Below the pieces are notes generated by a model, which saw only the letters and a list, made by a program, of their open reading frames with translations, was not told the DNA's origin and searched no databases. From Escherichia coli (GTDB lineage: Bacteria; Pseudomonadota; Gammaproteobacteria; Enterobacterales; Enterobacteriaceae): 64,000 bases of DNA. Positions 36,185 to 37,388 of this stretch are shown here, one piece after another (positions within the stretch are counted from its first letter, which is position 1; each line of letters opens with the position of its first letter). Position numbers and translations under genes: made by a program. The stretch lies in assembly GCF_048403405.1 (NCBI RefSeq), contig NZ_CP183129.1. The stretch is one strand, 5' to 3'.

Positions 36185-37388
36185 CTATATTGCATTTAAA
36201 AGGTCGTAATCATACGTATAGTCCTCTCTGGTAAAATATTGCTTCTCTGAGTTATAAGCTTCATATGTGTTATATTTTACGACCTCAAAGCAATTGTCTG
36301 GAGAATTTTCGTCTTTCTCGGGTATATTATCTGGAAGGAATTCCTCTGAGCTAGAGTCCTCTATGTCTAAATCTGTATTGTAATTAATTTTTGGAACGAT
36401 CAGATAAGCATTTTCTTTGACGCTTTCATAATCTTTAATGATTATATCGATGTGATAATCTATTTTTTCTAATGAGAATGCTTTCATCTCTGGTAATCTA
36501 ATTCTGTTCAAGTAATTGTTAATTTTCGATGAGCTTTTATATATTTCTTTTGTTAATTCATTTTCTAATTCATCTGTTAGAGTTGCTCTTGGTATAGATT
36601 CTATAATTGCAAGTCTCATAATTTTTAATTGTTCTTCGGTAATATCTCCAAGCGCATTTAAACAACTTTCGACAAGCTTAATTTTTTTCTTCAGAATACA
36701 TATCGTTAATGCTTGTTATAACAGGCGTTATTTTTAGTAAATAATCCCAGGAGATTGTGGCGTTTTGTTTTGAACTAACGAAATTTACCTGAAACATGTT
36801 GGCATTAGTAAAATCTGTGTCATCCAATTTAAAAGGATTTAAAATTGTATTGGCCATATGTTTATCTGTAAAATCATAAAGTTCTAAATCGACATTCCGT
36901 AAGTCCAGAGAGGATAGATCAACTATACCTCCAGTCCCACAACTAAAGATTACGTTCAACCTCCTGATTTCATTGTAAATGTCTTTCAATGGGCAATTAA
37001 CATTGATATTGCCTGTGGATATTTCCTAGTTTTTTAACGGTTCATTAATTGTAAGTTCACAGGTATTGTCTGATCGTTGAATAATTCGGGCGTTATAACC
37101 AAAAAAATCCATACGAAGAGAGGAGTCATTATAAAGAATTACATTTTGTAAGTACGCTAATTCTTTTTGAAAATCACCAGTGATAATGCATTTCCCACCT
37201 GGTTGTAACGCGTTAAGTAAAGTGACCATTTCAATAGAGGTCTGTTTTAGTTTTTCTATGCCTGGTGCTAGTGCTTCGAGGTTATTTCCTATGGGGCTTT
37301 CAGGAAGGTCATTCATTTTTCGACGGGCTAAATCACTACTAATATCATTACCAATTGATGAAACAGGGGACATTATTTTATCCTTCAT
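36185..37388 (-). pseudogene. yhaC: yhaC-like pentapeptide-repeat protein gene, apparently disrupted (in-frame TAG plus a frameshift)
   Basis: Three track ORFs (37026..37388, 36678..36989, 36185..36619) span about 1.2 kb; the first two are in the same frame separated by TAG at 37026-37028, the third is in another frame; position between yhaB and rnpB matches K-12 yhaC (about 395 aa, from memory); AT-rich. Confidence 0.5.

Follow-up and report, generated by a model that had tools for sequence, protein, structure and literature searches.

The 64,000-nucleotide stretch of Escherichia coli DNA analysed here (the window) raises the question of why three open reading frames (ORFs) tile 1.2 kb at the position where K-12 carries a single gene, yhaC. 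The ORFs lie on the minus strand at 37388-37026 (120 aa), 36989-36678 (103 aa) and 36619-36185 (144 aa). A first reading, made from the sequence alone, had found this pattern and offered three explanations, namely a strain-specific pseudogene, a sequencing or assembly error in an AT-rich region full of homopolymers, and a real multi-ORF arrangement. According to our analysis, the locus is a vertically inherited yhaC pseudogene that decayed in two steps, first by an amber mutation and then by an insertion into a run of adenines, and we assign this reading a probability of about 93%. The lesions were inherited within a small clone of human isolates and are not assembly errors. This copy of yhaC is ordinary and already known, as RefSeq has it as a pseudogene.

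The three ORFs and their arrangement were present as first described. ORF1 and ORF2 share one frame and are separated by TAG at 37028-37026, which is followed by 12 stop-free codons, while ORF3 lies in another frame. The length of about 395 aa given for the single yhaC gene of K-12 was matched by a K-12-like genome, in which yhaC is one ORF of 1188 nt and 395 codons, positioned between yhaB and rnpB. The gene order tdcA / tdcR / yhaB / yhaC / rnpB / garK is common to the identical relatives of the window and the K-12-like strain. In the window, the yhaC pseudogene occupies 36185-37373 on the minus strand, with its canonical ATG at 37373 and its original TAG stop at 36187-36185. Its upstream partner in the yhaB-yhaC pair, yhaB, is intact (37395-37934, minus strand; RefSeq WP_000675750.1 in the identical loci), and its downstream neighbor rnpB is located at 35582-35957 on the plus strand (Rfam RF00010, 317 bits).

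The canonical start (MSPVSS) is preceded by AAGGA. The start that had been given for ORF1, at 37388, does exist as an ATG, but it is not the canonical one: this ATG (37386-37388), in frame and five codons upstream, was created by a lineage-specific A-to-G change, and related alleles have ATA at this place (alignment column 65). The mechanically called ORF is 120 aa instead of 115 aa long because of this additional upstream ATG.

Once the window copy was conceptually repaired, its pieces could be scored against the NCBIfam model NF007262, an equivalog of 395 positions. Fragment 1 (codons 1-115; 37029-37373, minus strand) covers model positions 1-115 with 250 bits, fragment 2 (codons 117-230 in the original frame, up to the lengthened A run; 36681-37025, minus strand) covers positions 117-230, likewise with 250 bits, and fragment 3 (codons 231-395, out of frame with the other two; 36188-36682, minus strand) covers positions 231-395 with 315 bits. 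As the fragments tile the model in this way, their similarity to YhaC reflects homology and not chance. An intact allele with 98% identity scores 865.7 bits over positions 1-395. No single fragment of the window reaches the curated cut-off of 765 bits, as is expected of a pseudogene, and fragment 1 is the sole piece with the native start and a ribosome-binding site.

The lesions were defined by aligning the window with three intact orthologues at the same locus, the two closest alleles (identity 99.3% and 98.2%) and the K-12-like allele (92%). Exactly two disabling differences were found, and they are those that the sequence-only reading had suspected, an in-frame amber codon and a frameshift. 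The first is a change from CAG to TAG at codon 116 (Gln116; window 37028-37026), with the T at 37028 as the changed base. The second is one A added to a run of six at codons 229-231, which gives A7 at 36688-36682 on the minus strand, inside the zone of 36620-36700 in which a frameshift had been suspected. All intact alleles compared have A6 at this run. After A7, the frame reads AAT TAA, and translation would meet an out-of-frame stop two codons on, at 36680-36678. A further substitution, T-to-C at 36454 (minus strand; equivalent to Tyr307 to His), lies downstream of both lesions and is confined to the genomes that carry both of them. Relative to the K-12 gene (b3121), which occupies the same position in the series tdcR-yhaB-yhaC-rnpB and is described by the same NF007262 model, the window copy is thus broken by the codon 116 amber and a +1 frameshift at codons 229-231, and it belongs to a divergent allele class (dS about 0.19; 92% DNA identity to the K-12-like allele).

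The distribution of these lesions was followed across 5426 complete E. coli genomes by megablast and by exact short queries. With a stretch of 1351 bp as the query, megablast returned four genomes at 100% and two at 99.9% identity, all equal in length, then three genomes at 99.9% that are one base shorter, and then a block at 99.3%. Both lesions are present in six complete genomes (MS 69-1, 4621, TUM1226, OX030728, TUM14771 and GN02461), which come from different laboratories and countries. In four of these, 4621 (Houston), MS 69-1 (USA), TUM14771 (Japan) and GN02461 (USA), RefSeq labels the locus "YhaC family protein, pseudo: frameshifted; internal stop". The window is identical to the pseudogenes M5T46_RS03460 of 4621 and V9Z38_RS03135 of MS 69-1 over the 1351 bases compared, with nothing different within the gene, and differs from MS 69-1 by four substitutions and one gap over 64 kb. 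Three further close relatives have the amber without the frameshift, among them NRZ14408 and isolate 362 (Madrid), for which RefSeq gives "internal stop" only. The 99.3% identical allele of WP8-S18-ESBL-07 is an intact protein in RefSeq.

Column by column, the alleles form a series from intact, through amber only, to amber with the extra A and the T-to-C change at 36454, and the ranking of genomes from 24 kb of flanking DNA agrees with this series. The amber-only relatives and the intact 99.3% allele place the amber first and the frameshift second. An exact 63-mer with A7 matched 6 of the 5426 genomes, and these are the six nearest relatives, so the insertion happened once and after the amber. 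The lesions are therefore reproducible across independent assemblies and phylogenetically coherent (six double-lesion and three amber-only genomes), and the proposal of a strain-specific pseudogene holds in the form of a lineage-specific one. Between the window and the amber-only NRZ14408, five differences were counted across 19 kb (26000-45000), two of them within the 1.2 kb of yhaC; this share, although the numbers are small, would fit a relaxation of constraint following the first hit. Farther along, 36 of the 41 differences between these two genomes over 24 kb cluster in 4.2 kb at 45449-49685 (tdcE to cyuA); nearly all of them are transitions, a recombination-tract pattern in otherwise near-identical genomes. 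A literature search on NRZ14408 for its sequence type gave no useful result.

The sequence context of the amber points to its origin. Dcm methylates the inner cytosine of CCWGG, and deamination of 5-methylcytosine gives T. All intact alleles read AAC CAG GAA at this place and so contain the Dcm site CCAGG; the change fell on the inner C of this site, which reads CTAGG in the window (37029-37025, minus strand). Amber hotspots at CCAGG sites of lacI were reportedly traced to 5-methylcytosine deamination by Coulondre, Miller, Farabaugh and Gilbert in 1978. The yhaC amber shares with these hotspots the change of the inner C of CCAGG to T, the conversion of a CAG glutamine codon to TAG, and apparently independent recurrence. 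It differs in that the lacI sites emerged from a mutation-selection experiment, whereas the yhaC amber is seen in natural populations and is known here from sequence, and in that a second Dcm site of yhaC, described below, is without mutants.

A deamination hotspot predicts recurrence, and this prediction was tested with short queries. An exact 61-mer with the TAG in the context of the window matched 20 of the 5426 genomes, and a K-12-type 61-mer with the same C-to-T change matched 12 further genomes. In all, the Q116 amber is seen in 32 genomes, and the yhaC alleles that carry it represent at least four backgrounds; these genome counts are not counts of independent events, and it is the four backgrounds that were verified. 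HCP8S3_I1 has the amber within an otherwise K-12-like allele, and the K-12-type amber genomes carry K-12-type SNPs within 17-27 bp on both sides of the TAG, which makes recombinational import of the TAG unlikely. In ATCC 8739 and EC1722-1, the amber lies in a third allele that also has a different frameshift, +A at nt 1093. The fourth background is the mosaic allele of CRE444/2020S05-013, 93.7% identical to the window, into which the TAG may have been brought by recombination over a tract no longer than 93 bp. The 5' two-thirds of this mosaic resemble the window, and the remaining 3' third resembles K-12.

Controls were available within the same gene, which has 14 codons besides codon 116 that one transition would turn into a stop. 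At Q44 and Q195, CAG codons outside Dcm sites, an amber was found in one genome each. The prediction of recurrent ambers also at the second Dcm site, CCTGG at Trp209, where deamination on the other strand would yield an amber, was not borne out, with 0 mutants among about 2859 genomes with that background, and support for the hotspot is accordingly not uniform. We regard the Dcm-hotspot origin of the codon 116 amber as well supported but not proven. As a side observation, 98193 and NH-21 carry the +A at nt 1093 without the amber, which indicates that in the lineage of ATCC 8739 the frameshift preceded the amber, the reverse of the order in the clade of the window. The yhaC gene of ATCC 8739, a laboratory reference strain, is thereby doubly hit, by the Dcm-site amber at codon 116 and by the +A at nt 1093.

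Based on this series, we posit the following course of decay. The inner C of CCAGG would have been converted to T by deamination of 5-methylcytosine that escaped very-short-patch repair, turning Gln116 into an amber codon. In a sub-branch of the amber clone, replication slippage would then have added one A to the A6 run at codons 229-231, and the further substitution probably accumulated in the same sub-branch. This insertion into A6, which brings a stop two codons on, resembles the homopolymer slippage of other decaying bacterial genes; reversible phase variation is not indicated, since only one small clade has A7, as a fixed state, whereas the other alleles compared have A6. From the native start, only an N-terminal peptide of 115 residues should now be translatable, and the two downstream ORFs would be leftover reading frame rather than genes. 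The loss was probably neutral.

The DNA next to the pseudogene has peculiarities of its own. The run at 35681-35686 (plus strand) within rnpB has six G's in the window and seven in the six nearest genomes, in the amber-only relatives as well as in the K-12-like strain. Across the 5426 complete genomes, six G's are seen in 69, which are unrelated and scattered, and the shorter run looks like a recurrent homopolymer miscall or a harmless hairpin slippage rather than a clade marker. Downstream of rnpB, at 35908-36152, a repeat of roughly 113 bp occurs about twice, at spacings of 101-122 bp, whereas the K-12-like genome has four to five copies of the ~113-bp repeat (L003 4301-4929). The spacer between yhaC and rnpB measures 228 bp in the window versus 614 bp in the K-12-like strain because of this difference in copy number. 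Tandem Repeats Finder reported nothing downstream of rnpB, and the repeats were found by another repeat search.

The family to which this pseudogene belongs is narrow. G+C content is about 29-36% in the yhaC region, whereas the gar genes and rnpB alongside it have about 52-60%. In a word-indexed protein search, YhaC homologues were restricted to Escherichia and Shigella plus a sister clade with 62% identity, and an exhaustive search of 1.84 billion proteins (representatives) returned proteins and fragments of the same family and one marginal match at E = 5e-4. Pfam gave only sub-threshold matches to pentapeptide repeats, the best being PF13599 with an i-E-value of 0.058 at residues 152-201, and YhaC is thus not assigned to the pentapeptide-repeat families (PF00805 / PF13599). 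A sequence search of the PDB gave no match, PADLOC reported none, and PHROGs gave only E-values above 0.08. The AlphaFold2 model was unusable (alignment of 16 sequences, mean pLDDT 36, pTM 0.22). Mentions of yhaC in the literature are mostly incidental, and one match was rejected because 'YHAc' stood for acetate yield and not for the gene. One paper treats yhaB-yhaC as a young operon whose function is unknown (PMC12218254), and another places an H-NS-bound "promoter island" within yhaC (PMC3661553).

Where it is intact, yhaC is a real gene under moderate constraint, as its alleles show dN/dS values of 0.22-0.31 and no stops in the coding frame versus 15-47 in the other frames. Divergence among its alleles is unusually high for a gene on the E. 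coli chromosome, as dS between classes reaches about 0.2. Roughly 4300 complete genomes bear yhaC, and loss is common. In about 1065 of 5387 genomes (~20%), the 3' flank alone is kept and yhaB-yhaC are missing, with short remnants between tdcR and rnpB. One such genome, AR_0089, has yhaB-yhaC reduced to two short remnants (L010 2863-3503), and its tdcR itself has an internal stop. Other lineages have independent lesions, such as the nt 1093 +A frameshift or a codon 135 stop together with an inserted IS1. The yhaC of CS6L (L026 246-1442) was considered as an independent slippage at the A run of the window and was rejected, because five separate A5/A6 runs are longer by one or two bases at once; these expansions are almost certainly a systematic homopolymer error of that assembly, although RefSeq annotates the gene as 'frameshifted'.

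Given this record of repeated loss, it might be argued that inactivation of yhaC was selected in certain, mostly human-associated lineages. The same amber on at least four backgrounds, together with the other frameshifts, the stop with IS1 and the deletion in ~20% of genomes, would fit such a selection, and a study of E. coli from wastewater places yhaC in its list of top genes under positive selection (PMC9110714). We nevertheless consider this explanation unlikely. The recurrent amber lies at a mutational hotspot, so that its recurrence needs no selection, and selection for any loss should spread hits over many sites, whereas the other nonsense sites tested are rare. Intact alleles moreover show purifying selection (dN/dS about 0.25), and the gene, which lies in an H-NS-bound promoter island (PMC3661553), is likely poorly expressed, so that neutral decay would suffice.

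A more specific version of this idea, which we judge to be quite improbable, takes the Q116 Dcm-site amber as a recurrent, mutation-biased off-switch for yhaC that is favored by selection in particular niches, with YhaC under conflict. If true, the off-switch amber with its four or more origins in E. coli, the 20% deletion and the dS of about 0.2 would mean that YhaC is more than dispensable, being a conflict protein such as one that phages or the host recognize.

That the interrupted locus is still functional, either by amber read-through combined with +1 ribosomal or transcriptional slippage on A7 or with the fragments acting as separate proteins, appears very improbable to us. The exact wild-type sequence would in principle be restored if tRNA-Lys slipped by +1 on A AAA AAT or if transcription dropped one A, and fragment 1 retains its native start and Shine-Dalgarno sequence. 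Yet one mRNA would need two independent recoding events, and the window holds no suppressor tRNA, nor any other tRNA gene. The start of ORF2 is an internal TTG and that of ORF3 an internal ATG, neither with an evident ribosome-binding site. Programmed recoding would go along with an interruption conserved among relatives, a slippery site and a stimulatory signal; here the lesions are recent and confined to 6-9 closely related genomes, and the single ORF is ancestral and near-universal, with one intact 395-codon ORF in the K-12-like strain and in most of the other genomes examined. The additional missense change downstream of the lesions and the concentration in yhaC of two of the five differences from NRZ14408 over 19 kb likewise argue against retained function, and nothing supports the real multi-ORF arrangement that had been suggested.

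The remaining explanation, that the gene is truly intact and that the amber, the extra A or both are errors of sequencing or assembly in AT-rich, homopolymer-rich DNA, is the least probable of all: the frameshift does sit within a homopolymer, the window assembly may hold such errors given its G6 run in rnpB versus G7 in all nine compared relatives, and the unrelated assembly CS6L has clearly artefactual A-run expansions in yhaC, but six independent complete assemblies share both lesions identically and three more genomes carry the amber alone, this distribution tracks the phylogeny of the 24-kb flanks, only one of many A-runs is altered here versus five at once in CS6L, and a C-to-T substitution is not a homopolymer error.

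The reading as an inherited pseudogene bears on how the locus should be annotated and used. None of the three ORFs merits a gene call, and a yhaC pseudogene is the proper entry for the locus, in line with existing RefSeq practice. The codon 116 stop is a poor phylogenetic marker, since this amber at the Dcm site has turned up repeatedly in different E. coli lineages. For the biology of E. coli, the locus offers a clean natural case of stepwise gene decay, in which a nonsense mutation at a hotspot came first and a homopolymer frameshift followed once constraint was gone.
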